From an uncultured delta proteobacterium (GTDB lineage Bacteria > Desulfobacterota > Binatia > JACPRU01): a stretch of 64,000 bases of DNA. The stretch covers positions 64,001 through 128,000 of the forward strand of contig CAVUWD010000014.1 in assembly GCA_963745025.1 (NCBI GenBank), written 5' to 3'. Shown here one piece after another: positions 1,606-62,815 of the stretch. Within the stretch, counting starts at the first letter, position 1. Every line of letters begins with the position of its first letter. The notes beneath the pieces were generated by a model. It searched no databases. It was not told the origin of the DNA and saw only the letters and a program-made list of their open reading frames with translations. Position numbers and translations under genes: made by a program.

Positions 1606-1796
1606 CTCTTCGTTCACGGCCTTAGACCTCGGCCAGAGACGGTCGCCGAAGTGATCAGGGAGTCGACAGTCGAGCGGCGGCAGTCTAGAGTGCGTGCGGT
1701 CGGTGCTGTCGGCGGGGGCTACGGCCACGTGAGTTGCGGCTGCCCTTTTACCATTACCATCTCATGACAGGTTCACGCAGCGAAAGGAGCTGACCT

Positions 1797-3033
1797 ATGC
1801 GCTTCAAAGCGGTGGTTGGCGGCGTCGGCATGACGCGATTCGGCAAGCACATGGACACGGGGCTCAAGGCGCTCGGCGCCGAGGCCGTGCAGGCGGCGAT
1901 CGCGGACGCCGGCATTCAGGCCGGCGACATCGAGGCCGCGTTCGTCGGCAACGCCGCGGCCGGGCTCGTCACCGGCCAGGAGTCCATCCGCGGCCAGGTG
2001 ATCCTGCGCAGCATCGGCATCGGCCGCATTCCCGTGGTCAACGTCGAGAACGCCTGCGCCAGCGCCTCGACGGCGCTCCACCAGGCCTGCGCGATGGTGT
2101 CCGCCGGCATGCTACGACGTCGTGCTCGCGCTCGGCGTCGAGAAGCTCTACCACGAGGACAAGCGCAAGAGCTTCGCGGCCTTCAGCGGCGCGGTGGATG
2201 TCGAGATCCTGCAGATGCTGCTCGAGGGCCTCAAAGCGAGCGCCAAGCGCAGGGGCGCCGAGGCCGCCGAGGGCGGCGCCGGCGAGAAGCGCTCGATGTT
2301 CATGGACATCTACGCCGCCGCGGCGCGCAGCCACATGCAGCGCTACGGCACCACCGCCCAGCAGTTCGCCGCAGTGGCGGCCAAGAACTCATTCCACGGC
2401 AGCATGAACCCGCGCGCGCAGTTCCGCGAGGTGCTGACCGTGGACCAGGTGCTCGCCGCGCCGATGATCGCCGAGCCGCTGACGCGGCCGATGTGCTCGC
2501 CGATCGGCGACGGCGCCGCGGCGGTGCTCGTGGTGAGCGAACGGAAGGCGCGGGAGCGCGGCGTGCGCGCCCCGGTGCGCGTGGTCACGCATGGTGCTCC
2601 GCTCCGGCTGGGATCACGGCATCGACGAGCCGGGCACGGTCGAGGTCTGCGCGCAAGAAGCCTACGAGGAAGCCGGCCTCGGCCCGAACGACGTCAACGT
2701 CATCGAATGCCACGACGCCTCCGCGCCGGCCGAACTGATGGCCTACGAGTCGCTCGGCCTGTGCGCCAAGGGCGAGGGCGGGGCACTGGTCGACAGCGGC
2801 GCGACGAGACTCGGCGGACGCATTCCGGTCAACACCTCCGGCGGCCTGCTGCGCAAGGGGCACCCGGTCGGCGCCACCGGCATCGCGCAGATCGTCGAGC
2901 TGACCGAGCAGTTGCAGGGCCGCAGCGGCAAGCGCCAGGTCGCAACGCCCGCATCGGTCTCGCACACAACGGTGGCGGCACGATCGGCATCGACGCCGCC
3001 GCGATGTGCGTCACCATCCTGCAGCGCGATTAG
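1797..3033 (+). CDS. Thiolase, SCP2/lipid-transfer type (frameshifted in this assembly)
   Basis: NVENACAS, ECHD and GHPVGATG motifs spread over three ORF frames (shifts near 2110, 2590, 2945). Confidence 0.85.
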
Positions 3034-3118
3034 GGCGCCTGTGGAATCGTGCACCCTACACCGCAGGGCCGGCCGTGCCGGCCGAACCATAGTTGCTGCA
3101 GTTGAGGCTTGGAGCCCT

Positions 3119-3143
3119 CTCTCCCACACTCGCGGTGGGAGAG
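3119..3143. repeat. REP-like hairpin
   Basis: CTCTCCCAC-N7-GTGGGAGAG perfect 9-bp stem in the thiolase-ligase spacer. Confidence 0.45.
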
Positions 3144-3165
3144 GGCCCTCCCGGAGAGAACGCAC

Positions 3166-4779
3166 ATGCGTGAACGCAACGAACTGATCCTGACCGACCT
3201 GATCGCGGCGCGCGCCGAGGCCCGCCCGGACCTCGACGTGCTCACCTTCGAACGCTGGAGCATCGGCGACGGCGCCTCGCCCGACGAGGTGCGCACCTAC
3301 GCGGCACTGCGCGAGAATGCCAACCGCATCGCCGCCGCGCTGGTGCGCCACGGCATGGCGCCGGGGGCGCGCTTCGGACTGATGATGCGCAACCATCCCG
3401 AGTTCGTGGAGACGATGATCGCGGCCTCCATCACCGGCTGCGTGTTCGTGCCGATCGACCCGCGCACGCGCGGCGAGAAGCTCGCGTACATGCTGCGTCA
3501 GTCGGGATGCCAGGGCCTGGTGTGCGCCGACTATTGCCTCGATCAGGTCCGCGACATCCGCGCCAAGGTGCCCGACATGCGCTGGGTCCTGGTGCTCGAG
3601 ACGGGCGAGAACGGCGCGCCGGTGCCGCTGGACGGCGTCGATTCCCTCAACGAGGTGCTCGCAAAGGCGGCGGCAACGGTGGACGTGCGCCTCGAGCACG
3701 CCGACGCGCCGCTGCAGATCATCTACACATCGGGGACGACCGGCGACCCGAAAGGCGTCGTCTTCCCCAACTCGCGCTTCGGGCTCTTCGCCATGCTCGG
3801 GATGATGCTCGGCTACCAGCCCGACGACCGGCCATACACCGGCCTTTCGCTTACGCACGGCAACGCCCAGGCGGTGACCCTCGGCCCGTCCCTGCACATG
3901 GGCTTGCGCGCGGTGTTCAGCCGCAAGTTCACCAAGTCGCGCCTGTGGGATATCACCCGCCGCTACGGGTGCACGACCTTCTCGATGCTCGGCGGCATGG
4001 CCACGGCGATTTACAGCGAGCCGCGCCGCCCCAACGACGGCGACAATCCGGTGCGCGTGGTGATCGACGCCGGCATGCCGGCGTCGATCATGGGGGAGTT
4101 CGAGCGGCGCTTCGGGGTGCGCATCTTCGAGTGGTACGGCGCGGTCGAAGGCGGACTGGCCTTCAAGCCGATCGGTGTCGGGCCGATCGGCAGCTTCGGC
4201 AAGCCGGTGCCCGGACTCGATATGAAGGTCGTCGACGAGCAGGACAACGAGTGCCCGCCGGAGGTGGTCGGCGAGATCGTCTCGCGCCCCGCGACCGGCG
4301 AGTCGGCCAACGTCGAGTACTTCGAAAACGAGGAGGCGTCGCGCAAGAAGACGCACGGCGGCTGGCTGCGCAGCGGCGACATGGGACACCGGGACGCCGA
4401 CGGTTGGTTCTTCTTCGATTACCGCAAGGGCGGCAGCATTCGCCACAACGGCGACTTCGTCAACGCCGGCTTCGTCGAGAAGGTGATCGCCGAGCACCCG
4501 GCCGTGGCGGACGTCTTCGTGTACGGTGTCCCGGCGGCATCGGGGGCACCGGGAGAGAAGGACGTGGTTGCGGCGATCGTGCCCGCGGCCGGCGTGGGGT
4601 TCGATGCCGACTCGGTGTTCGCGGCGTGCCGCAAGGGGCTCGAGCCGAACTTCGTGCCGTCCTATTTGCAGGTGGTGGACGAGATTCCGAAGACGGCATC
4701 GGAGAAGCCACAGGAGCGCTTCCTGATCGAGCGCTTCGCCCCCGACGGACCGGGGATCTTCACCCAAACGCAAGCGTAG
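3166..4779 (+). CDS. Acyl-CoA ligase (AMP-binding, CaiC-like)
   Basis: IYTSGTTGDPKG AMP-binding motif, WYGAVEG, SGD, C-terminal PKTASEK; GGAGAG RBS. Confidence 0.9.
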   Translation: MRERNELILTDLIAARAEARPDLDVLTFERWSIGDGASPDEVRTYAALRENANRIAAALVRHGMAPGARFGLMMRNHPEFVETMIAASITGCVFVPIDPRTRGEKLAYMLRQSGCQGLVCADYCLDQVRDIRAKVPDMRWVLVLETGENGAPVPLDGVDSLNEVLAKAAATVDVRLEHADAPLQIIYTSGTTGDPKGVVFPNSRFGLFAMLGMMLGYQPDDRPYTGLSLTHGNAQAVTLGPSLHMGLRAVFSRKFTKSRLWDITRRYGCTTFSMLGGMATAIYSEPRRPNDGDNPVRVVIDAGMPASIMGEFERRFGVRIFEWYGAVEGGLAFKPIGVGPIGSFGKPVPGLDMKVVDEQDNECPPEVVGEIVSRPATGESANVEYFENEEASRKKTHGGWLRSGDMGHRDADGWFFFDYRKGGSIRHNGDFVNAGFVEKVIAEHPAVADVFVYGVPAASGAPGEKDVVAAIVPAAGVGFDADSVFAACRKGLEPNFVPSYLQVVDEIPKTASEKPQERFLIERFAPDGPGIFTQTQA

Positions 4780-5942: not shown

Positions 5943-6470
5943 CTATTTGACGACGCCGCAGGCGATGCGGCCGCCGCCGCCACCGAGCGGCTTCGGCTGG
6001 TCGGATAAGTTGTCGCCGCCTTCGTGGATCACCACCGCGTGTCCCGCGAGGTCCGCCACCTTGAGACGCGGGGCCGTCAGCTTCTCCTCGGCGATGCCAT
6101 TCTTGTCCACGACGAGGGGCGGCAGGTCGCCGAGGTGCCCCTGGCCATTCGGTCCTTCGTGCTTGCCGGTCTTGGCTGGATCGAGGTGGCCTCCGGCCGC
6201 CACCCCGGCCGTCATCTTTCCGTCCTTCTCCTTCGGGCCGCAGTCGCTCCCCTCATGCACGTGGAGGCCGTGCTCGCCCGGCGGCAGACCAGTGAGCTTG
6301 GTCTCGATGACGAGCCCCTCCTTGCCGTCGTCAAAATGGATCGTGCCGAGCGCCTTACCAACCCCCTTTTCATCGATCTGGTTCATCGTCACGGTGACGC
6401 CCGCCGCCAAAGCGAACGGGCTCATCGCAACCGTCGCCGCGATCGTGAGAACGCTCGTTTTCCTCAGCAT
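5943..6470 (-). CDS. sodC: Cu/Zn superoxide dismutase, periplasmic
   Basis: Signal peptide; metal ligands HGLHVHE, GGHLDP, KHEGP, GHLGDLP, VIHEGGD; RIACG. Confidence 0.95.
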   Translation of the reverse strand: MLRKTSVLTIAATVAMSPFALAAGVTVTMNQIDEKGVGKALGTIHFDDGKEGLVIETKLTGLPPGEHGLHVHEGSDCGPKEKDGKMTAGVAAGGHLDPAKTGKHEGPNGQGHLGDLPPLVVDKNGIAEEKLTAPRLKVADLAGHAVVIHEGGDNLSDQPKPLGGGGGRIACGVVK

Positions 6471-6591
6471 CTTTTCTCTCCTTTCCCGTTGAGAAGAGAC
6501 TCTCTACTCTTTCTCCGGTTTCGTCGCCATCGCCGGGTGGCACCACGCCTCCTTGCTCATCTTGCCCGCTCGGCCTCGCGTCTCTTCCCGC

Positions 6592-8488: not shown

Positions 8489-8666
8489 AGCGGGCGCGAA
8501 AACCGTGAAGAGCGCCCGGGGACATCATCGCCCCGGGAAATCCGTGAATGGGTGACGGAGTCCATGCGAGACCCCTTTTGATGGAACCGGTGTTCGATTG
8601 ACTTCGGCGCGATGTCCGCAGGAGACTCCGCGCACTTTCGTTTCCTCTCACCCAGGAGAAGAGTCC

Positions 8667-10751
8667 ATGAAGCGTCCTTCGCTGGTAGAGGTCGGTCTTT
8701 GGGGGCTGTCGATCGTGCTCGTCCTTTCCCGCCAGAGTCTCGGTGCGGACGAGGCGGGGACGCGGAAGCCTCCGACCGTCGAGGAGATCCAGGCCGCCAC
8801 GGCCCAGGTCGACGACGAGCGGCTGAAGCATCCGCAGCCGGGGGAATGGCTGACCTACAACGGCAGCCCGAACGAGCAACGCTACAGCCCGCTCGATCAG
8901 GTCAATGACAAGAACGTCACCGACCTGAATCTGGTGTGGAGCTTCTCGACGAACTCGATCCGCGGGCTCGAGGCCACGCCGCTCGTGGCCGGCGGCGTGA
9001 TGTACACGACCGCGCCGTGGAGCGTGGTCTTCGCGCTCGACGCACGCACCGGCAAGCAGATCTGGAGCTACGATCCGAAGGTACCGAAGGAGTGGGGACA
9101 GAAGGCGTGCTGCGACGTGGTGAACCGCGGTGTGGCGGTCTACAAGGGCAAGGTCTACGTCGCGACGCTCGACGCGCGGCTGGTGGCGCTGGATGCCGCG
9201 ACCGGAAAGGTCGTGTGGGAAGAGCGGACGACCGAAAAGGACAAGCCCTACACGATCACCGGTGCTCCGCGCATCGTCAACGGCCGTGTGGTGATCGGCA
9301 ACGGCGGCTCCGAGTACGGCGTGCGCGGCTACGTGTCGGCCTACGACGCGGAGAGCGGGAAGCTTGCCTGGCGCACGTACACGGTTCCGGGCGATCCCGG
9401 GAAGCCGTTCGAGTCGGAAGCGATCGAGGAGGCCGCGAGGACCTGGAAAGGCGCCGACAAGTGGCTGAAGGAAGGCGCGGGCGGCACCGCGTGGGACGCG
9501 ATCACGTACGATCCCGAGCTCAACCTACTCTATTTCGGCACCGGCAACGGCGTGTCGTGGGATCGCGATGACCGCAGCCCCGGTGGCGGCGACAACCTCT
9601 ATCTGAGCTCGATCCTCGCGGTGTTCGCCGACACCGGCGAGGTCAAATGGCACTATCAGGTCGTCCCCGGCGACACCTGGGACTTCGACGCCTGCCAGCA
9701 ACTCGTGCTCGCCGATCTCAAGATCGACGGCAAGGTGCGAAAGGTCTTGATGCAGGCGCCGAAGGAGGGCTTCTTCTACGTCATCGATCGCGAGACCGGA
9801 ACCCTGATCTCCGCGAAGCAGTACGCCGACACGGTCACCTGGGCCAAGGCGATCGACATGAAGACCGGCCGGCCGATCGAGAATCCGGATCAGCGCTACG
9901 CCAAGGGCGTATCGCTGGTCATGCCCTCCAATTTCGGCGCCCACAACTGGCACCCGATGTCGTTCAGTCCGAAGACGGGGCTCGTCTACATTCCGGCTCA
10001 AGAGACGGGGGGGGCGTTCGCGAAGGAAGAGAATCCGAAGATCAAGCCGGGCGCCTGGAACCTGGCGATCGACCTCAATCAGTTCCGGGCGTTGAATCGC
10101 CAGAACGCAGGCACGGGGCACCTGCTCGCGTGGGACCCCGTGAAGCAGAAGCCCGCGTGGCGCGTGCAGCATGCGTACCTCTGGAACGGCGGCACGGTCG
10201 CCACGGCCGGCAACCTGGTCTTCCAGGGCACGTCCGACATGCGCTTCGTGGCCTACAGCGCCGACAAGGGAAAGAAGCTCTGGGAGGTGCCCGTCCAGAG
10301 CGGCATCATCGCCGGGCCGATGACCTACATGCTCGACGGCGTGCAGTACGTCACGGTGAGCGCCGGCTGGGGCGGCGCGTTCGCGCTCGCCGGCGGCGAT
10401 GCCGCGCTCGCGACGGGAGCCCGGCCCGGTGGCGCGGTGCTCACCTATGCGCTCGCGAGCAAGGTGCCGCCCATCTCTGCGGCCGCGGTGGATCCCGACG
10501 TCGCGAGAGGCGAAAAGCTCTACCACAGCTACTGCGCGGTCTGTCACGGCGCGGGCGCCGTCTCGGGCGGCCTGGTGCCGGATCTGCGCCACTCGAACGA
10601 GGACGTGAAGAAGAACATGCTGCTGATCACCAAGCACGGTCTTGCGGGAACCGGCATGGCGCCCTTCGGGGCATGGGTGAGCGAGGACGAGGCGCAGCTC
10701 ATCCAGAAGTACATCCGCGCGCGCGCCGACACCGAGAAAAGCGGGAGGTGA
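8667..10751 (+). CDS. PQQ-dependent quinohemoprotein alcohol dehydrogenase (type II), candidate lanthanide-dependent
   Basis: Signal peptide, PQQ beta-propeller W-motifs, vicinal [30 protein letters not shown]; C-terminal cytochrome c CAVCH...GMAPF; AGGAG RBS. Confidence 0.93.
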
Positions 10752-13660: not shown

Positions 13661-13827
13661 CGTCCGCCTCTCGGTGCGGCGGTTCGGCAGCCGCGATCGG
13701 GGAGCGCGCGAATCGCGTCGGCGGGTACCCGCCGGGTCAATGGTCGTACCTCCTCTCTCGAGCGCATCTGCTCCAGGTTCCGATCCGCGAGCACGAGGGC
13801 GCGGGCAATCCAGAGTATGGTGATCAT
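13657..13827 (-). CDS. Small unannotated protein (56 aa) coupled to usp
   Basis: GGAG RBS, ATG 13827, MITILWIARALVLADRNLEQMRSREEV...GGR*; stop overlaps the usp start (GTGA). Confidence 0.4.
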   Translation of the reverse strand: MITILWIARALVLADRNLEQMRSREEVRPLTRRVPADAIRALPDRGCRTAAPRGGR

Positions 13828-14043: not shown

Positions 14044-14553
14044 ATGAACCCCAACGATGCCATCCGCCTATTCGCCAAGACCCTGCAGAATCTCGAACGT
14101 TGGATGGACAAGGCCACCGCACACGCGAAGGCCAAGTCCTTCGATATCGACGTGCTTGCCCAGGCACGGCTGGCGCCGGATCAGTACGCCTTCGTCGGCC
14201 AGGTGCAGTCCGCCTGCGACCAGGCGAAGTACGCGGCCGCGTACCTCGGCAACAAGACGGCGCCGTCCCACCCGGACACGGAACAGACGTTCGCCGAGCT
14301 CCGGCAGCGGATCCAGAAGTGCCTCAGCTTCGTCGAGACCGTGCAGGAGAATGATCTGGCTGGAGCGGACGAGCGGAAAGTGGCTCCGCCTTGGCTCGGC
14401 GGCAGATGGCTCCGCGGCGACGACTACCTGGTGCACATCGCGCTGCCGAACTTCTTCTTCCATGCGACGATGGCGTACGCGATCCTCCGCCACAACGGCG
14501 TCGATCTCGGCAAGATGGACTACATCGGATCGATCCCGACGAGGGAAGGCTGA
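14044..14553 (+). CDS. DUF1993 / DinB-like helical protein
   Basis: ARLAPDQ, QVQSACD, PNFFFHATMAYAILRHNGVDLGK.DY; AAGGAG RBS. Confidence 0.9.
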   Translation: MNPNDAIRLFAKTLQNLERWMDKATAHAKAKSFDIDVLAQARLAPDQYAFVGQVQSACDQAKYAAAYLGNKTAPSHPDTEQTFAELRQRIQKCLSFVETVQENDLAGADERKVAPPWLGGRWLRGDDYLVHIALPNFFFHATMAYAILRHNGVDLGKMDYIGSIPTREG

Positions 14554-14709
14554 CGTCAGGCGGCATCGATCTCTTGAACGCTCGATCGCCGGTGGCGTCT
14601 ACGGGAAACACTGACAGCACGGGTGAAGGCGGCTTCCCCTGAACGTCGGATCGAAGTAGTCGAACTCCGGGAGACCGAGATCGGCGACGAGCGTGGGAGA
14701 CTACCCACC

Positions 14710-15627
14710 ATGAACGAGAAGCCCGCGTGGCTCCGTGAGCTCTTCCCGTGGGAGCAGCAAACGCTCCGCGTGAACGGGCGCTCGATGGCATACGTCGACG
14801 AGGGCGAGCGCGGGACGCGGCCGGTCGTCCTCCTCCACGGGAACCCGACGTGGGGCTTTCTCTATCGCGACTTCGTCGGGCCGTTGAAGCGCGCCGGCTA
14901 CCGCGTCGTCGTCCCCGATTGGATCGGCGCCGGCTACTCCGACCACCCGCGCCTCGACGCCGCGTACTCGCTCGCGCACCACGCGGCCGACCTCGTGTCG
15001 CTGATCGACCAGCTCGATCTCCGGGGCTTCGTGATCGTCGGGCAGGACTGGGGCGGACCGCAGGGCGTCGGCGCCGCGCTCCGGCGGCTCGACCGCCTGG
15101 CGGCGCTCGTCCTGATGAACACTTGGCTCTTCACGGGTTATGCCGGGAAGTTCCATTCCTCTCCGCGGCCGTGGACGACGTGGCACGCGCCCCTGGTCGG
15201 CCAACTGCCGATGAAGCGCTGGAAGGTGCTGTCGCATGCGGGGCCCTCCGCCGTCACGCGGCGGGGATTGAGCGAGGCGGAGAAGCGCGCCTACCATCAC
15301 GTCTTCGACGAGCCGGAGTCGGATACCGTGGTGCTTACCTGGCCGCGGACGATCCCGATGCGCGAGGGGGACCGCGGCTGGGCGGACATGAAGGAGATCG
15401 AGCGCCGCCTCCCCGAGCTCGCGAGCACGCCGACGCTTCTTCTCTGGGCGCCGGAGGACAACGTCTTCCCGATCGAGTACGCGAACCGGATGAAGGAGCT
15501 CCTGCCGCACGCGGAGGGCCCGATCCTCTTCGACCGCGCGGCGCACTTTCTCCAAGATGATCGTGGCCCGGACCTCGTCGCCGCGATCGTGCCGTTTCTC
15601 GACCGCACCGTCGGGAGCCGCCGATGA
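14710..15627 (+). CDS. Alpha/beta hydrolase, haloalkane dehalogenase/OleB family
   Basis: HGNPTW, GQDWGG (Asp nucleophile followed by Trp), AAHFLQDD. Confidence 0.85.
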   Translation: MNEKPAWLRELFPWEQQTLRVNGRSMAYVDEGERGTRPVVLLHGNPTWGFLYRDFVGPLKRAGYRVVVPDWIGAGYSDHPRLDAAYSLAHHAADLVSLIDQLDLRGFVIVGQDWGGPQGVGAALRRLDRLAALVLMNTWLFTGYAGKFHSSPRPWTTWHAPLVGQLPMKRWKVLSHAGPSAVTRRGLSEAEKRAYHHVFDEPESDTVVLTWPRTIPMREGDRGWADMKEIERRLPELASTPTLLLWAPEDNVFPIEYANRMKELLPHAEGPILFDRAAHFLQDDRGPDLVAAIVPFLDRTVGSRR

Positions 15628-16001
15628 AGTTCGTGACGGCCCCGACGCCCGAAGAGCTCGCCGCCCTCCGTGCCGATCCTCTCCTCTGGGAGCAGGAGCT
15701 CGACGTACGACCCGAGGTCGCCGAGTCGATCGAGCGCGCGCTCGGGTTCCGCGCCGGGCGGGCCTACTGGCAATCGGCGCGTGGCCACCTCTACGCGCTC
15801 GAGCTCGCGGATCTCGGGCGCGGCCGGCCATCGATGGCGATCGTGTACGGCTTCTGGTCGCGCTGGGAGCCGCGGCCGGCCGAGGACGTCATCGACGCCG
15901 ATCTCGTCGACTTCTGCCTGTGGTTCGCCGAAGCCGCCGACGGGCTCGAGCGGGAGGACGTCGAGCGGGTGTTCGAGCGCGCACGGCGACGGCCGGCGTG
16001 A
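15624..16001 (+). CDS. Hypothetical protein (125 aa, acidic)
   Basis: ATGA overlap with the upstream hydrolase; GC-rich third positions. Confidence 0.65.
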   Translation: MKFVTAPTPEELAALRADPLLWEQELDVRPEVAESIERALGFRAGRAYWQSARGHLYALELADLGRGRPSMAIVYGFWSRWEPRPAEDVIDADLVDFCLWFAEAADGLEREDVERVFERARRRPA

Positions 16002-16219
16002 CGCCGTGCTTCGGCGTCGTCATTCCCGCGGGCCGCTTTCCATCTCCCGCTTCAATGCCGAAGACGGTCGCCCGGTCCCTCTTCGGTTCGCCTCGGTCCG
16101 GAATTTGCGCCGGTGGCGTCGGCATCGGGCGCCCGAGCCGCGCGCAGCGAATGCGGGGCGAAGCCCCGGGGCGGCAAGACGAGCGTGACGGCGGCGTGGA
16201 ATGGAATTCGGTCGAGCGG

Positions 16220-16696
16220 TCAGCCTGCGGTTTCGCTGAGCCGATCGGTCGGAATGCATCCTTCTCGGCCCCGAAGGTTCCCGGACAGGATTCTAACCTT
16301 TGCCATCAGCCCGCATTCGCCCAGGATCTCTACCTTGGTCCCATGCGCGACTTCGCCGAGCTGAAAAGGCGCGCATGCGTCCTGATCTTGCCGGTCGGCC
16401 GAAGGACTCACCTCCGAACGTACCAGGTCGTCGATCCGCCTTTTCGCATCTCGCTTCCTCGCCTCGATCACCTGAGCGCAATCCTCGAGGGCCGTGGACG
16501 TCTGCCAAGCCATTGCGTTCGGTTGGCTCGCGCCGTCCCTGTTCTCGCCGGCATTCACGAACCGAAATACCGGCGTGACGGCAGCTTCTCGACTAGCGGG
16601 TGCGACCACGCTTTCGATCAACCGGCCTATGGCAAGCCACGCCACTGCGCCGAACAACAGCACCGCTCCGAGGACCGAGATGTTCTTCGTCTTCAC
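16220..16696 (-). CDS. Hypothetical membrane-anchored or secreted protein
   Basis: N-terminal hydrophobic segment; C-terminal GTKVEILG..AKVRIL.G...EGCIP resembles an SH3-like fold. Confidence 0.55.
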   Translation of the reverse strand: MKTKNISVLGAVLLFGAVAWLAIGRLIESVVAPASREAAVTPVFRFVNAGENRDGASQPNAMAWQTSTALEDCAQVIEARKRDAKRRIDDLVRSEVSPSADRQDQDACAPFQLGEVAHGTKVEILGECGLMAKVRILSGNLRGREGCIPTDRLSETAG

Positions 16697-28475: not shown

Positions 28476-29252
28476 TCAGCGACCGCGGAAGACCGGCCTT
28501 CGCTTCTCGAGAAACGCGCGTACGCCTTCGCGATAGTCCTCGCTCGCGAAGCAGGCCCGGATCGATTCGGCGGCCGCCTCGGTTTCGTCGCGGCCTCGCG
28601 CCAGCGCGCCGAGCATGCGCTTGGCGCTGCGGATCGTCAGCGGCGCGTTGGAGGCGATGTCCTCGGCGGCCTTGCGCACGAAGGGCTCGAGCTCGCGCTT
28701 CGCCACGACCGCGTTGACGAGCCCCTTCCGCGCCGCTTCCCCGGCATCGAAGCGGCGCGCCGTGAAGAGGATCTCCTTTGCGACCGATTCGCCGACCACG
28801 GCCGTCAGAGCCGCCAGGCCGTGCGCCGGATAGCCGAGCCCGAGCCGAGCCGCGGGGATCGCAAACGTGGCGTCGTCGGCGGCGTAGCGAATGTCGGCAC
28901 AGAGGGCGAGCGCGACACCGCCGCCGACGCAGAATCCGTGAATCATGGCGAGGAGCGGTTTCGTCACCGCCCGCAGCGCCTCGAACGCCCTCGCGTTCTC
29001 TTCCTCGTACCGGCTGCCTGCCTCGCCGGTGCGCAGTCGCTCGAACTCGGAGATGTCCGCGCCGGCGACGAACGCTTCCTCGCCCGCTCCGCGGAGGATC
29101 ACCACGCGAACGGCGTCGTCCTCGTCGACTCTCTTTGCCGCGGGCGAGATCGCCCGCCACATCTCGCCGGTGATCGCGTTTCGTCGCTCGGCGTGGTCGA
29201 AGACGATCCAGCCGATAGCGCCCTCGCGAACGATGCGCACTTCGCCGGGCAT
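28476..29252 (-). CDS. Enoyl-CoA hydratase/isomerase
   Basis: [37 protein letters not shown]. Confidence 0.9.
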
Positions 29253-29367
29253 CAGCAGCCCCCTCGACGCGGTACGGTGCCTTGCATTCTTGGCTCTCTA
29301 TCTCGTTCGAAAGATCGTGTCGATTCGCCTTGACTGCATGGCCGGCGACGCGCGAAACCTTGGTTCG

Positions 29368-29881
29368 ATGCGCTCGCTCCTGCTTTTTTGCGCGCTGCTT
29401 CTGCTACCGGCGAGCGTGGGCGCCAACCTGCTCAAGGAAGGCGACAAGGCGCCCGATTTCACGCTCACGGATCAGGGCGGAAAGCCCGTCCGACTCGCCG
29501 ATTTCCACGGGAAGTCGAACGTGGTCATCGCCTTCTACGTGATGGCGTTCACGCCCGGCTGAACGCAAGAGCTGAAAGCGTATCAGGCCGATGCGCCCGA
29601 GCTCCGGAAATCCGAGACGCGAGGTGTTAGCGATCAGCGTCGATGATCGAAAGACCGTGCGCGAATTTGCCGACTCGCTCGGCGCGTCGTATCCTCTTCT
29701 TTCGGACGAGACGCGGGAGGTCTCCAAATCCTATGGCGTCCTCGATGCGAGCGGGCGAATCGACCGGCGCGTCACCTTCGTCGTCGATCGTGAGGGAGTC
29801 ATCCGCAAGGTCGACGAAGGCATGGCCGCCGTCGATCCGAGCGCCGTCGTGAAGTTCTGCAGCGTCCTCAAACGCAAGTGA
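29368..29881 (+). CDS. Secreted peroxiredoxin (BCP/AhpC-TSA family), putative selenoprotein; one extra base near 29610-29620
   Basis: Signal peptide, [24 protein letters not shown] (TGA 29560-29562 at the peroxidatic Cys position), then EVLAISVD...LLSD...RVTFVVD in the +1 frame. Confidence 0.85.
29563..29595 (+). promoter_or_regulatory. Candidate bacterial SECIS hairpin
   Basis: Immediately after the UGA: CGCA(29564-67)/UGCG(29592-95) lower stem; CUGA(29572-75)/UCAG(29583-86) upper stem; G-containing apical loop AAGCGUA. Confidence 0.55.
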
Positions 29882-29892
29882 ACGGAGTCCCT

Positions 29893-30978
29893 ATGCGCGC
29901 CGCCGTCATGAGACAGAAGAAGCTCGTGGTCACCGATCTCCCCATGCCGGAGCCCGGCCCCGGCGAGGTGCTCGTCAAGACCCTCGCCTGTGGGATCTGC
30001 GGCTCGGACCTGCACGCGCTGAAGCACGCCGAGAAGCTCGTCGACAGCGCGCGACGGTCGGGCGGGCCGTTCGTAATGGACCTCGCACGCGACATCGTGA
30101 TGGGTCACGAGTTCTGCGCCGAGATCGTCGACCACGGCCCCGCGACCACCAAGGCGCTGAAGACCGGCACGCGCGTCTGCTCGCTGCCGGTGCTGATCCG
30201 GCCCACAGGCGTCGAGACCGTCGGCTACTCGAACGACAACCCGGGGGGTTACGGCGAGTACATGCGACTCACCGAGGCCCTCCTGCTCGAAGTGCCGGCG
30301 GGCCTTTCTACGGAGCACGCCGCCCTCACCGAGCCGCTGGCCGTCGGCCTGCATGCCGTCGAGAAATCGCGGCTCGACAAGCAGGACGTGCCGCTCGTCA
30401 TCGGCTGTGGGCCCGTCGGTCTCGCGGTGATCGCGGCGCTCCGCCTGAAGAACGTCCATCCGATCGTGGCCGCGGACTTCTCGAAGCGCCGGCGCGAGCT
30501 CGCGACGGCGCTCGGCGCCGACATCGTCGTCGATCCGGCCGAGAAGTCTCCCTACGAAAGCTGGAAGCAAGTGGCGACTTGGAGCGATCCCGCCGAGGCA
30601 CCGCCCTTGCCGCCCTGGATTCCCGGACCAGCGCTGCGGCCTGCGGTCATCTTCGAGTGCGTCGGCGTGCCCGGCGTCATCGACAAGATCATGATGTCGG
30701 CCCCGCCGGGAGCCCGCGTCGTGGTCGTCGGCGTGTGCATGGAGCGCGACTCGATCGAGCCGATGTTCGGCATCAACAAGGAGCTGAATCTGCAGTTCGT
30801 GCTCGGCTACACGCCCGAGGAGTTCGCCGCCACGCTCTACAACATCGCGGACGGCAAGATTCTGACCGAGCCGCTGATCACCGGCAAAGTCGGCGTCGAG
30901 GGAGTGGCCGGCGCCTTCGAAGAGCTCGCCTCGCCCGAGCGGCACGCGAAGATCCTCGTCGAGCCCTGGCGGAGCTGA
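29893..30978 (+). CDS. Zinc-binding (MDR) dehydrogenase
   Basis: CGICGSDLH, GHEF, GCGPVG, FECVG. Confidence 0.9.
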   Translation: MRAAVMRQKKLVVTDLPMPEPGPGEVLVKTLACGICGSDLHALKHAEKLVDSARRSGGPFVMDLARDIVMGHEFCAEIVDHGPATTKALKTGTRVCSLPVLIRPTGVETVGYSNDNPGGYGEYMRLTEALLLEVPAGLSTEHAALTEPLAVGLHAVEKSRLDKQDVPLVIGCGPVGLAVIAALRLKNVHPIVAADFSKRRRELATALGADIVVDPAEKSPYESWKQVATWSDPAEAPPLPPWIPGPALRPAVIFECVGVPGVIDKIMMSAPPGARVVVVGVCMERDSIEPMFGINKELNLQFVLGYTPEEFAATLYNIADGKILTEPLITGKVGVEGVAGAFEELASPERHAKILVEPWRS

Positions 30979-33017: not shown

Positions 33018-35396
33018 CTACGCGCGCTCGATCCGGCAGCGCACGTAGCGGTGGTGGGGAACGCCGGTGAACGGGTCGCGGTCGGCCACGTCGGTGAGCT
33101 CGTTCTGATTGGCGCCGTCGAGGTGCGTGCCGCCATTGCCCTCGACGGCGACTCTCATGCCAAAGCCGTTCGGCATCCATACGTGTCCCGGGAGCAGCTT
33201 ACTGTCGATCCGCGCGGGCAGCGTGACCGAGCCGCGCCGCGTCGAGATGCGCAGCGTGTCTCCGTCGTCGATGCCGAGATGCGTGGCATCCGCGGGCGAG
33301 AGATTGAGCGCGCAGTGCGGTCCGCGGCCCTTCCGCCACTTCGGATCGCGGTGGATCGTGTTGGCGGTCCAGCGCGTGCGCAGGCCGGCGGCCAGGACGA
33401 ACGGGTAGTCGGCATCGCTCGCCGGAGGAGCGGCCGCAGCGCGGCGGATTTCTTCGATCATCGCCTCGGGTGCGAGCCGGACGCGGCCGTCTTCGAAGCC
33501 GACGTGGTCCTCGAGGTTTCGCTCGGGGTCGATGCGCGCGACCTCCACGCCTTCCGGATGATCGAGGATTCGGCGGAAGATCTCGGTGCCGATCTCGAAC
33601 GGGCTCTTCTCCCGCCACTCGGCGCCGAGCGTGCGCAGAACGCTATCCCTGCGGAGCATCGCGTTCAGGTGACACTGGAGCCAGATCGCCGCCAGCGACG
33701 GCGCCGCGAGCTCGCGGCCGATCGTGCGGTAGCTCCAGAAGAGCACTCGCTCCTTGGCGATCTTCGCGTACTCGGGCTCGCTCGCCGCCAGCGCTTGCGC
33801 CGCGGCGAGGAACTTCCCCGCCCCCTCTGCATCGAGCGCATCCGCGCGCGAGCTCGGCGAGCGCCGCCGGCGGCTCGCCGAAGAGATTCATCGCCTCGGC
33901 CAGGCGCGCATAGATTTCCGGCTCCGGCAGCGCTTCGCCGAGCGCCGGAACGACGGGCGGCCGCACCTGGACGAAGATCTCCGGGTAGCCCTTGGGGAAG
34001 TTCGCCATTTCCCACTTCTCGTAGCCGACCGGCGTCGGCAGGACGTAGTCGGCGAGCACGCGCGGTCTCCGTCATGGCCGGCTCGATCACGACGAGGAGA
34101 TCGAGCCGTTCGCGCGCCTCGCGCCAGCGCGCGGTGTCGGAGTACGAGAGAAGCGGGTTCGATCCCTCGACGATGAGCGCACGCAGGCGCTCGGGGTGGT
34201 CGGCGAGCACCTCCTCGGGCACGAGGGTCGGCGAGAACATGGCGAAGTTGCCGAGCGCCGCGATCGCCGGAATGCCCGAGACGAGCGCGCGCTCGAGCTC
34301 GCGCCCGCGCGTGCGGCTCGCGTCCTTCACCGGCGGCAGCAGGGTCTCGATGAAGATGTTGCCGCCCGCGTCGCCCGACGTTGTCGGTCAGCGTGAGCAG
34401 GACGCGGATGAGGTAGGAGATCAGCGTCGAGAACGGCGTCTGCTCGACGCCGAGGTCGTAGAAGATCGCCGCCGACTCGGCGCGCGCGAAGCTCGGACGC
34501 CGTCTCGACCAGCGCGGCGGTGTCGATTCCCGAGCGTCGCGCCATCTCGTCCACGTCGACGGTCGCGAGCGCCTCGCGCAGGATCTCGAAGTCGCGTGTG
34601 CGCTCGCGCACGAACTCGTCGTCGACGAGCTCGTTTCGCACGATCGCCGCGGCCATGCCGAGGAGCAGATAGGCGTCGGTTCCGGGCCGCACGCGCAGGT
34701 GGCGGTGAGCGCCGCGGGTGGTCTCGGTCTCGCGCGGGTCGACCACCACCATGCGGCGCGCTGGGATCTTCGACGAAGCGCTTGAAGCTCTCGGTCGGGT
34801 TGTGGCCGCGGTTGCGAGATCCGCGGGTTGGTGCCGAGCACGAGAAGGAAGCGGGCGTTCTCCATGTCGGCATGGAAGAACGTCGCCGGCGAGGCGTCGA
34901 ACATCCACTGATCCATCAGGTTGTGCTGGGTCTTCTCCTGAGCGAAGGCGTTGAACCAGCGCCGCGAGCCGAGCGCGCGGAGAAACCCGAGACCGTAGGG
35001 CGCGTCCATGTGGTTGCCCTGGCCGCCGATGCCGACCAGGCCGATCGATCGCGGCGAGTGCTCGGCGCGGATCTCACGGAGCTTCGCGCCGATCTCGGCG
35101 ATTGCGGTGTCCCAGCCGACGCGCTCGAAGCTGCCGTCGGCGCGCCGGCGCAGCGGATGCTCGAGACGCTGTGCATGGTTCACGTAGAAGGGAATGCTGA
35201 CGGCCTTGTTGCAGATGTAGCCGGTCGTGATCGGGCTCGTTTCGTCGCCGCGAACGGCGGTGATCTTCCCCGCGCGGACGTCGACGCGCACGGCGCAGTT
35301 GTGGCTGCAGAGCACGCAGACGGTGGCGAGGTCGTCGCCGTCGAGCGCGAGCGGCGTCTTCGAAATCGAGGGATCGAGGGTTCGGGTCGCGGTCAT
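33018..35396 (-). CDS. Molybdopterin (Mo-bisPGD) oxidoreductase with N-terminal 4Fe-4S motif (frameshifted in this assembly)
   Basis: CVLCSHNC...GYICNK, RLEHPL, GTNPRIS, VDPRETET, ADYVLP, C-terminal PNGFG...DPFTG; split across several frames. Confidence 0.85.
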
Positions 35397-35881
35397 GAAT
35401 GGACTCCTTTCGCAATCGCCGAGCGGCGTCCGCGGAGGGCGGGCCCCGGCCGCACGGTCATGTCGCGCGCCCCCACGGGTTCTCCGCACTCGGGACAGGC
35501 CAGCGCGGGCATGACGTGGCGGCCGCAGCCACGATGGACGAGCTCGATCGGCGGCCCGGCCTTGCCGGCCATCCAGCGGTCGCCCCAACGCGTGAGCGAG
35601 ACGATGATCGGATAGAGATCTCGGCCCTTCTCCGTCAAGCGGTACTCGAAACGCGCCGGATGCTCCCGGTAGCGGACGCGCTCGAGGATCCCGTGTCGCA
35701 CGAGCTTTCGCAGGCGGTCGGCCAGGCGGTGACGCGTCGTGCCGAGATCGCGCTGGAAGTCCTCGAATCGACGGACGCCGAGAAACGCATCGCGCAGCAC
35801 GAGCAACGTCCAGCGATCGCCCACCACCGACAGAGCGCGCGCAACCGAGCAGGTCATGTCCCCGATCTGGCTCCAGCGCAT
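35393..35881 (-). CDS. HxlR-family winged-helix regulator
   Basis: CSVARALSVVGDRWTLLVLRD, EYRLTEKGRDL, C-terminal HRGCG..CPECG; ATGA overlap with the Mo-enzyme gene. Confidence 0.9.
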   Translation of the reverse strand: MRWSQIGDMTCSVARALSVVGDRWTLLVLRDAFLGVRRFEDFQRDLGTTRHRLADRLRKLVRHGILERVRYREHPARFEYRLTEKGRDLYPIIVSLTRWGDRWMAGKAGPPIELVHRGCGRHVMPALACPECGEPVGARDMTVRPGPALRGRRSAIAKGVHS

Positions 35882-35888
35882 GGCGGGC

Positions 35889-35918
35889 ACTATAAGTTCC
35901 AAATTAGAACTGAGTCAA
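35889..35918 (-). promoter_or_regulatory. Sigma70 promoter with operator palindrome; likely leaderless transcript
   Basis: TTGACT-N18-TATAGT-N7-ATG; spacer contains AGTTC-N7-GAACT (35895-35911); no RBS. Confidence 0.7.
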
Positions 35919-43620: not shown

Positions 43621-43763
43621 GGACCCTCCTCGATGGCGAACCTTCGCAATCTATGCCCGCCCGCTACCAGACGGAAGCCTCGCAAGCGAGTGGCGACCTA
43701 GCGACGGCTGAGAGCCTCTGTTATCTTCGAGGCATGCTTCGGTGAACGGAAGGAGCCGGATCG

Positions 43764-44087
43764 ATGAGCGCTGTTCAAGAAGTCACCGACACCAACTTCG
43801 AAAACGAGGTCATCAACTCCGATCTGCCGGTGTTGATCGATTTCTGGGCCCCATGGTGCGCGCCATGTCGGGCAATCGGCCCGGTCGTCGACGAACTGTC
43901 GCGCGACTACTCGGGCAAGCTCAAGGTCGTCAAGATGAACGTGGACGACAACCCGCTCACTCCGTCCCGCTTCGGCGTGCGCTCGATTCCCAATCTGCTC
44001 ATCTTCAAGAACGGCCAAGTGAAGGACCAGATCGTCGGCGCCGTTCCGAAGCAGGTGTTCGAGCAAGCGATTCGTAAGGTCGTATAG
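43764..44087 (+). CDS. trxA: Thioredoxin
   Basis: [15 protein letters not shown]; AAGGAG RBS. Confidence 0.95.
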
Positions 44088-55246: not shown

Positions 55247-61335
<6,089 letters not shown>

Positions 61336-61384
61336 CGCCTCCCTTTCGTCGCTCTCATGGTCCATATGGTCCATACTGAGCAAC

Positions 61385-61726
61385 GTGGGTACGCGCAGCT
61401 TTCGCCCGACCAGACGCCGGCGCGTGCCGAGCGCCGACGACATCGACCGCGTGATCCGCGAAGCGAAAGCAGCGGCGCGAGCCCGCGGGCTCGACTACCG
61501 CGCCCGCTCGCTCGCGCTCCACGGCTGGATCTGCGCGCGCTGTGCGCGCGAGTTCGACGAGGCGAATCTCCATCTGCTGACCGTGCACCACAAGGACGGG
61601 AACCACGAGAACAACCCTCCCGACGGCCGCAACTGGGAGAACCTCTGCGCCGACTGCCACGAGGCCGAGCACACGCGCGGGCTGCTCGGTGACTACCTCA
61701 CCGGCAAGGCGCCGCGAAAATCTTGA
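61385..61726 (+). CDS. yajD: YajD-family HNH nuclease
   Basis: WICARCAREF, LTVHHKDGNHENNPPDGRNWENLCADCH. Confidence 0.88.
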   Translation: MGTRSFRPTRRRRVPSADDIDRVIREAKAAARARGLDYRARSLALHGWICARCAREFDEANLHLLTVHHKDGNHENNPPDGRNWENLCADCHEAEHTRGLLGDYLTGKAPRKS

Positions 61727-61756
61727 CAGCACGCGGTTGGCGTGGCACGTGCCACG
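61723..61756 (+). promoter_or_regulatory. -35 box and perfect 16-bp palindrome upstream of the methyltransferase
   Basis: TTGACA 61723-28; CGTGGCACGTGCCACG 61741-56, 6 nt before ATG 61763. Confidence 0.45.
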
Positions 61757-61762
61757 GTCACC

Positions 61763-62815
61763 ATGGCGATCAATCCGGACAAGCTGAACGAGTTCGTCGC
61801 CAAGGCCGTCGGTGACCTCGGCGCCACTCTCGGCGCCGCGCTCGTCGCGATCGGAGACAAGCTCGGCCTCTACCGGGCGATGAAGGAAGCGCCGGTCACG
61901 TCGGCGGAGCTGGCGAAGAAGACCGACACGCACGAACGGTACGTCCGCGAATGGCTTGCCGCCCAAGCGGCTGGCGGCTACGTCTCCTACGATCCGGAGA
62001 CCAGCCGCTACTTCCTCACCGAGGAGCAGGCGGAGTGTCTCACCAACGAGGAGAGCCCCGCCTGCGTGCTCGGCGGCTTCCAGGCGATGCTAGCCGCCAT
62101 GAAGACCTCGACGAAGGTGATGGACGGGTTCCGCACGGGCAAGGGCGTGGCTTGGCACGAGCATGACGCCGACCTCTTTCGCGGCACGGAGCGCTTCTTC
62201 CGCCCCGGCTACAACGCGAATCTCGCCGGCTCGTGGATTCCCGCTCTCGAAGGCGTCCTCGCGAAGCTCGAGTCGGGCGCGACGGTCGCCGACGTCGGCT
62301 GCGGACACGGCGCGTCGACGATCATCCTCGCCAAGGCCTTCCCCAAGTCGAAGTTCCGCGGCTTCGATTACCACAAGCCCTCGATCGACGCGGCCACCCA
62401 GCGCGCACGCGAGGCCGGCGTCACCGACCGCGTGACGTTCGAGGTCGCCTCTGCCAAGGACTATCCCGGGAGCTACGATCTCGTCGCCTTCTTCGACTGC
62501 CTCCACGACATGGGCGATCCCGTCGGCGCGGCCGCCCACGTGCGACAGTCTCTCGGTCGCGACGGGACCTGGATGCTCGTCGAGCCGTTCGCCAACGACA
62601 CGGTGGAGGAGAATCTGAACCCGATCGGGCGTATCTTCTATTCGGCCTCGACGCTCATCTGCTGCCCTGCCTCGCTCTCGCAGGAGGTCGGCGCCGCGCT
62701 CGGCGCCCAAGCGGGCGAGGCACGGATGCGCGAGGTCATGCAGAAAGCGGGCTTCACGCGGTTCCGGCGCGCAACCCAGACGCCATTCAATCTCGTCTAC
62801 GAGATCAGGCCGTAA
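61763..62815 (+). CDS. SAM-dependent methyltransferase with N-terminal wHTH (Rv2258c-like)
   Basis: IGDKLGLY, ERYVREWL, DVGCGHG, FDCLHDMGDP. Confidence 0.9.
   Translation: MAINPDKLNEFVAKAVGDLGATLGAALVAIGDKLGLYRAMKEAPVTSAELAKKTDTHERYVREWLAAQAAGGYVSYDPETSRYFLTEEQAECLTNEESPACVLGGFQAMLAAMKTSTKVMDGFRTGKGVAWHEHDADLFRGTERFFRPGYNANLAGSWIPALEGVLAKLESGATVADVGCGHGASTIILAKAFPKSKFRGFDYHKPSIDAATQRAREAGVTDRVTFEVASAKDYPGSYDLVAFFDCLHDMGDPVGAAAHVRQSLGRDGTWMLVEPFANDTVEENLNPIGRIFYSASTLICCPASLSQEVGAALGAQAGEARMREVMQKAGFTRFRRATQTPFNLVYEIRP

Follow-up and report, generated by a model that had tools for sequence, protein, structure and literature searches.

The locus and the encoded peroxiredoxin

The gene described here lies on the plus strand of a 64-kb stretch of DNA (the window; GC content 66.8%), between a divergent enoyl-CoA hydratase gene and a downstream Zn-dependent dehydrogenase gene, neither of which suggests a redox partner (Table 1). 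Frame 0 runs into an in-frame TGA directly after the residues FYVMAFTPG, and alignment to homologues placed this codon at the column of the peroxidatic Cys, so that T62-P-G-U65 is the counterpart of the TxxC motif of peroxiredoxins (Prx). When the TGA was read as selenocysteine (Sec, U) and a four-base step was made at CGAG, a read-through protein of 170 residues was obtained. The Pfam AhpC-TSA domain (PF00578) covers residues 25–147 of this protein with 126.6 bits (cut-off 26, 6.9e-37), and its best match among solved structures is AhpE of Mycobacterium tuberculosis (E 1.6e-22, residues 18–148). The NCBIfam equivalogs all stayed below their cut-offs (Prx-SUH NF045827, 32.5 against 298; PrxU NF040737, 62 bits against 270, hence the protein is not a PrxU equivalog), as did the best NCBIfam match, BCP PRK09437 (87.2 against 140).

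Table 1. Coordinates of the features discussed in the text, numbered from the first letter of the window
Feature	Position	Strand	Basis
Enoyl-CoA hydratase, divergent neighbour	28476–29252	−	ORF family matches
Sec-containing Prx gene (putative)	29368–29881	+	ATG 29368–29370, final stop TGA 29879–29881
Start codon and predicted Sec-type signal peptide, residues 1–19	29368–29424	+	hydrophobicity
First coding segment, frame 0, residues 1–84	29368–29619	+	translation; gapless alignment to relatives
Active-site Thr62, ACG	29551–29553	+	frame 0 translation
In-frame TGA, read as Sec65 (TxxU)	29560–29562	+	peroxidatic column, alignment with Cys forms
SECIS-like stem-loop	29569–29604	+	fold, family conservation
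Outer stem, GAGCU/AGCUC	29569–29573/29600–29604	+	fold
Inner stem, GCGUAUC/GAUGCGC	29578–29584/29590–29596	+	fold
Apical loop, AGGCC	29585–29589	+	fold
One-base surplus relative to relatives (+1 frameshift)	29620–29623	+	alignment, frame switch
Second coding segment, +1 frame, EVLAISVDD...KFCSVLKRK and stop	29621–29881	+	translation, match to relatives
Catalytic Arg134, CGC	29768–29770	+	invariant in 20-sequence alignment
Cys164, TGC	29858–29860	+	invariant in 20-sequence alignment
Zn-dependent dehydrogenase, downstream neighbour	29878–30978	+	ORF family matches
Thiolase, split	within 1794–3184	+	ORF family matches
Molybdopterin oxidoreductase, split	within 33021–35903	−	ORF family matches
argB, split	56319–57314 and 57318–57764	+	ORF family matches
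argD, three frames	within 57008–59173	+	ORF family matches
argF, three frames	within 59170–60119	+	ORF family matches
argG, split	59885–60931 and 60868–61332	+	ORF family matches

Both Arg134 and Cys164 were invariant in the 20-sequence alignment, and the latter belongs to a conserved A-x-D-P-x-G-x(4)-C tail. The whole protein has only one further Cys, Cys8 of the leader, and Cys164 suggests itself as the partner in a selenenylsulfide, in which it may act as the resolving residue. The PxxxTxxC motif, as quoted in PMC13188914, lacks its canonical Pro here, Val58 (29539–29541) taking that place at −7 from the TGA; the fold and the remaining catalytic residues are in place.

Residues 1–19 begin with the n-region MR, continue with a hydrophobic core and end in VGA, and their maximal 10-residue Kyte-Doolittle mean is 3.37. 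Cys8 is not conserved in two close relatives (P0033 and P0038; P numbers denote database proteins and L numbers genomic loci), and its context is no lipobox. A hydrophobic leader ahead of the Prx domain was found in 58 of the 59 family copies, many of them ending in A-x-A-Q, by a crude home-made script that asks for a mean Kyte-Doolittle value of 2.0 or more over 10 residues and picks its own favourable start codon; the 59th copy is cut by a contig end. On the strength of this predicted signal peptide the protein would be exported. The original prediction had claimed a TGA at the peroxidatic Cys, Prx-like sequence past it, an N-terminal signal peptide and one C-terminal Cys as a possible resolving residue, and these features were recovered, the signal peptide as a predicted hydrophobic leader.

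The TGA column and the downstream hairpin

In a protein database search with the read-through protein, the best 120 of 174 matches were classified. Three N-terminal fragments, P0018, P0033 and P0038 (98%, 86% and 88% identity, respectively), all stop exactly at FYVMAFTPG, while 18 of the best 120 matches are fragments of approximately 100–108 aa that start 4–5 residues past the Sec column with sequences resembling (M/L)KAYQADIAK. Four full-length proteins among these matches have Trp at the column (P0006, P0007, P0009 and P0010), presumably where a TGA was called under code 4 or 25. Cys occupies the aligned position in P0008, P0011, P0012, P0019 and P0005 and at the genomic locus L038, thus the Cys/TGA pairs that had been proposed as a check on this column were found. 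A second search, with the C-terminal ORF of the window (96 aa) as query, gave 27 fragments of 83–92 aa with 69–95% identity, and the sole full-length close match was P0005, a Cys form with 67% identity over the C-terminal part. One protein of 92 aa (P0152) starts like the C-terminal part of the Prx family and continues like an aldehyde dehydrogenase (PF00171); its source is probably a chimeric or broken contig of 646 nt.

Species-representative genomes were then scanned with an 8-sequence alignment and the pattern TFV[VI]D[RSK][EGQ]G[VI][IV], by which at least 432 loci were confirmed, 80 of them being kept. Among the matches listed, none exceeded 57% identity to the window gene. The 56 nearest listed loci (L001–L056) carry TGA at the column in 55 cases and TGC in one (L038), and two of them, L003 (copies at 9438 and 10181) and L009 (10127 and 10784), contain tandem copies with TGA in both. 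The listed loci from L057 on are ordinary Cys Prx genes, with TGC in the five of five that were inspected. According to their record titles, L001–L056 derive from Terriglobia, Pyrinomonadaceae, Blastocatellia and other Acidobacteriota, from Myxococcaceae (L050 and L052), from a "delta proteobacterium" (L051) and a "Deltaproteobacteria bacterium" (L055), and from two records binned as Clostridia or Heliomicrobium. Since the stop codon is conserved at the catalytic Cys column across such taxonomic breadth, it does not reflect decay. At −7, 56 of 57 TGA copies have V, I or A in place of the Pro, L035 being the sole exception; the Cys forms L038, P0011, P0012, P0013, P0015, P0017, P0019 and P0020 retain it but P0008 does not, relatedness being uncontrolled in both counts.

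A stem-loop with G in its apical loop had been predicted within about 16 nt of the TGA. The fold of the window bears this out, as the inner stem begins 15 nt past the TGA and closes the loop AGGCC. The 86-nt segment 29555–29640 has a minimum free energy of −34.8 kcal/mol (z = −2.62; one of 200 shuffles folds as well), while the 34-nt hairpin core of the window is by itself unexceptional against shuffles (z = −0.68). The family was compared over 58 gene copies from the TGA to +60 nt, comprising 50 distinct 34-mers, in 49 of which a hairpin in the same columns with G in the loop is the minimum-energy fold (median z −2.08 against shuffles). The loops are GGC, GUC, GGA, GGU, AGGCC or CGGGAC. The named structure of 13 pairs has 85.2% of its cells paired in the 58 sequences compared with 20–49% when the partners are slid by 1–3 columns. 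Changes on both sides of a pair occupy 33 cells compared with 16.5 in shuffles, and the covariation score is 0.162 compared with 0.105; neither value was reached in any of 500 shuffles. Pair 21–36, for example, is GC in 29, AU in 10 and CG in 10 sequences, and the lower-stem variants GGCG/CGCC, GGCA/UGCC, GCAA/UUGC, CGA/UCG and GCC/GGC all keep the pairing. The register of the stem varies, most members having a bulged U that is missing from the window and from the Myxococcaceae-type loci; this is why RNAalifold, run on the ungapped family alignment, returned a consensus of 6 pairs only. The Cys form L038 reads AYQLNLG at the hairpin site and has no hairpin. The peptide A-Y-Q-A-D-I-A is nearly frozen in the TGA forms because the hairpin is its coding sequence. 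Like the E. coli fdhF-type SECIS, the window hairpin lies inside the ORF shortly past the UGA and has G in the apical loop; its sequence is unrelated to that element, and the bulged U of most family members is a further point of likeness. Nowhere in the 64-kb window did an Rfam family attain its gathering score.

With regard to the machinery of Sec insertion, a tRNA scan of the 64-kb window detected no tRNA-Sec (nor a tRNA of any kind), and no SelA, SelB or SelD family was found among the selected ORFs of the window that were scanned. At the related locus L007, a tRNA-Sec gene (13729–13823, +) is situated 3.3 kb downstream of the family gene, and no selA, selB or selD lies beside it within the 20-kb locus. 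Past this tRNA-Sec, the opposite strand of L007 encodes an AhpC/TSA-Redoxin-like protein (14149–14700, −) and a pyridine-nucleotide disulfide oxidoreductase (14755–16302, −).

The window gene could alternatively be an ordinary Cys Prx in decay, in which a TGC turned into TGA by chance, a frameshift followed and no Sec is involved. Two lesions in 510 nt and the lack of visible Sec machinery among the selected ORFs and in the tRNA scan of the window are what such a history would leave. It would not account, however, for a TGA shared at this column by 55 of the 56 listed loci from several phyla and by close relatives that end at FTPG, for a co-varying hairpin downstream that is missing from the Cys form L038, or for a protein sequence past the TGA that is conserved at 69–95% among 27 relatives. 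We consider this explanation highly improbable. A frameshifted gene with no TGA-bearing homologues had been named beforehand as the finding that would speak for a pseudogene; TGA-bearing homologues make up nearly all of the nearest listed loci.

The surplus base and the state of the record

Frame 0 matches the relatives up to T84 (29617–29619) and then resembles nothing until its stop at 29644–29646, while the +1 frame matches them from 29621/29624 (E-VLAISVDD...) to the stop at 29879–29881. The relatives align across 29620–29623 without a gap, and P0138, P0148 and P0149 read through the site in a single frame. The shifted head of the window's C-terminal ORF occurs in none of the 13 close C-terminal fragments inspected, and all 27 fragments are shorter than this 96-aa ORF. 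The +1 shift that had been suspected near 29610–29620 is thus real in the given sequence and unique among the relatives, and it maps to the edge of that interval, at 29620–29623.

At least eight other frame changes were counted in the window. They affect argB, argD, argF and argG as well as the thiolase and molybdopterin oxidoreductase genes. It is hardly plausible that four neighbouring genes of arginine biosynthesis have all died, so indel errors explain the breaks most simply. The genes for PBP2 (627 aa, with 98% identity to P0157 along the entire protein), the AMP-ligases and the PQQ dehydrogenase are intact, thus the frame breaks are patchy across the record. The surplus base at 29620–29623 is probably an error of the record and not biology, which agrees with the original suspicion of a sequencing error. 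The indel-rich state of the record matters for every other "broken gene" within the window.

Under the standard code the gene as deposited has two lesions and the look of a pseudogene, which counts against its being intact. It is conceivable that the family does consist of selenoproteins while the window copy is a genuine pseudogene, truncated after residue ~92 by a real mutation at 29620–29623. The shift is present in the given sequence, no relative has it, as expected of a recent lesion, and large genes nearby, such as that of PBP2, are intact, so that the record is not uniformly error-ridden. Nevertheless, the frame changes elsewhere fall in genes on which a free-living cell depends, four of them (argB, argD, argF and argG) in a 5-kb stretch, besides the thiolase and the Mo-enzyme, and the 85 codons downstream of the shift are 95% identical to P0125 and open to the usual stop of the family. 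A dead copy therefore appears unlikely to us.

Recoding of another kind, that is, a TGA read as a standard amino acid (e.g., Trp under codes 4/25) or a programmed +1 shift, is hardly credible. Trp at the column in four database proteins and the position of the shift 16 nt past a stable hairpin would suit it, but the gene itself terminates with a TGA (29879–29881), the homologues of the Trp forms have Cys at this catalytic column, where Trp cannot act, a tRNA-Sec gene lies beside the L007 copy, and the shift occurs in no relative. Considering these results together, we favour, with a probability of roughly three in four, the reading that the locus encodes an exported Prx of approximately 170 residues with the AhpC/TSA fold, nearest to the AhpE and BCP types and with a peroxidatic Sec, and that the extra base is most likely a record error. 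In this reading, Sec would be inserted in the source organism itself.

Known selenoperoxidases and the proposed function

AhpE of M. tuberculosis (Rv2238c; PDB 1xvw and 4x1u) is a 1-Cys Prx. Its AFT..C/U and R.TFVVD segments align with the window protein, AhpE having Cys where the window protein has Sec, and the alignment ends before the C-terminal Cys tail of the latter. Eubacterium acidaminophilum is a Gram-positive anaerobe, and its PrxU (NF040737) is located in the cytoplasm. PrxU has Sec at the peroxidatic site like the window protein; reviews present it as the experimentally shown case of a Sec-containing Prx (PMC9312934 and PMC13188914, available portions). That Prx-like selenoproteins were already known, as the original prediction had stated, is evident from the same sources together with PMC1794560, in whose available portions Prx of the TxxU type is catalogued. 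The bacterial selenoprotein tables include Prx with COG1225/Bcp, PF00578 and TxxU, citing Soehling et al. 2001 (PMC9312934 and PMC13188914), and Table 1 of Zhang et al. 2006 contains 12 Sec-Prx, three of which are from Anaeromyxobacter dehalogenans (PMC1794560).

The window gene has the fold and the TxxU motif of the catalogued family, with Sec likewise in the peroxidatic column, and it belongs to this family. An A. dehalogenans entry (supplement file 4 of PMC1794560) resembles it in AFTPGU, in the AIDP...C tail and in the Cys near the C-terminus, and differs in having SAYRDRY where the clade of the window gene has KAYQAD. Neither the lineage nor an exported location is discussed in the available portions of PMC13188914, PMC2398784 and PMC9312934, in which signal peptide, periplasm and secreted are absent or refer to other proteins. 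Literature searches on periplasmic or signal-peptide-bearing Sec-Prx returned nothing specific, and one on Binatota and selenocysteine yielded a single unrelated paper. Table 2 of PMC1794560, as far as available, names no phylum of a Binatia-like host. PBP2 of the window points to such a host, as its named relatives are entered as Candidatus Binatia, Binatota or "Deltaproteobacteria bacterium" (58–84% identity), and RodA gave a weak lead towards Acidobacteriota.

According to the mechanism we propose, the UGA at 29560 would be recoded by SelB and Sec-tRNA(Sec), recruited through the hairpin at 29569–29604, which, being inside the coding sequence, would impose A-Y-Q-A-D on the protein sequence. 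By means of the leader, the protein would cross the inner membrane. There, the selenolate, together with Thr62 and Arg134, may reduce peroxide and turn into a selenenic acid, which Cys164 would resolve to a selenenylsulfide, and an envelope thiol reductant of the DsbD or ScsB-TlpA kind may reduce the latter. The available text on PprX of Caulobacter crescentus, a cell-envelope Prx reduced by TlpA and ScsB (PMC3322552), offers a precedent for this reductant pathway. PprX, likened here by description and not by sequence, is also a Prx outside the cytoplasm; it is a thiol enzyme, whereas the window gene would encode a Sec enzyme.

Neither a ScsB/TlpA-like neighbour nor any conserved redox partner or reductase was found near the family gene among the 89 of 146 neighbouring ORFs examined at 20 related loci, short, distal or gene-overlapping ORFs having been left out by eye. 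The neighbours vary across these 20 loci, with Ser/Thr kinases in five and HSP20 in three. The tandem paralogues of L003 and L009 adjoin HSP20 and Ser/Thr kinase genes, and ClpB is also present in L009. In the window, the region 29150–30000 contains no sigma-70-like promoter and no intrinsic terminator.

A wider reading is that a large clade of exported selenoperoxidases provides a selenium-based peroxide defence of the envelope, the clade being widespread among soil phyla (Acidobacteriota, Binatia-like bacteria and Myxococcota), that the SECIS dictates AYQAD(I)A and that the active-site Pro was lost with the switch to Sec; we would give this reading no better and no worse than even odds. If it is true, the clade would need an envelope reductant for the selenenylsulfide, and if the proteins are exported, these bacteria would be investing selenium in protection from peroxide beyond the cytoplasm. 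Gene callers split or mis-translate the family, leaving N-terminal stubs that end at FTPG, C-terminal stubs that begin from KAYQAD or LAISVDD, and the Trp forms; because of this, what may be an antioxidant enzyme widespread among soil bacteria for the most part does not show up in protein databases. L038 and the P0011-type forms would make a clean Sec/Cys pair for asking what Sec buys a Prx.

Other in-frame TGAs with coding-like flanks occur at 16 places in the window, all of them looking like antisense frames, gene ends or frameshift debris, and they yielded no second candidate. TGA 33888–33890 (−) in the Mo-oxidoreductase gene, considered as a possible Sec codon, was assigned to frameshift debris, since the plausible frame differs there. 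Further redox genes of the window encode a Cu/Zn superoxide dismutase (5946–6503, −) and a thioredoxin (43746–44084, +), neither of which adjoins the Prx gene, and the PQQ dehydrogenase, which has a C-terminal cytochrome c domain (8556–10748, +), is not adjacent to it either. Directly after the broken argG lies an ORF with an HNH endonuclease domain (61304–61723, +), which is followed by a gene for a methyltransferase with a winged-helix domain (61727–62812).
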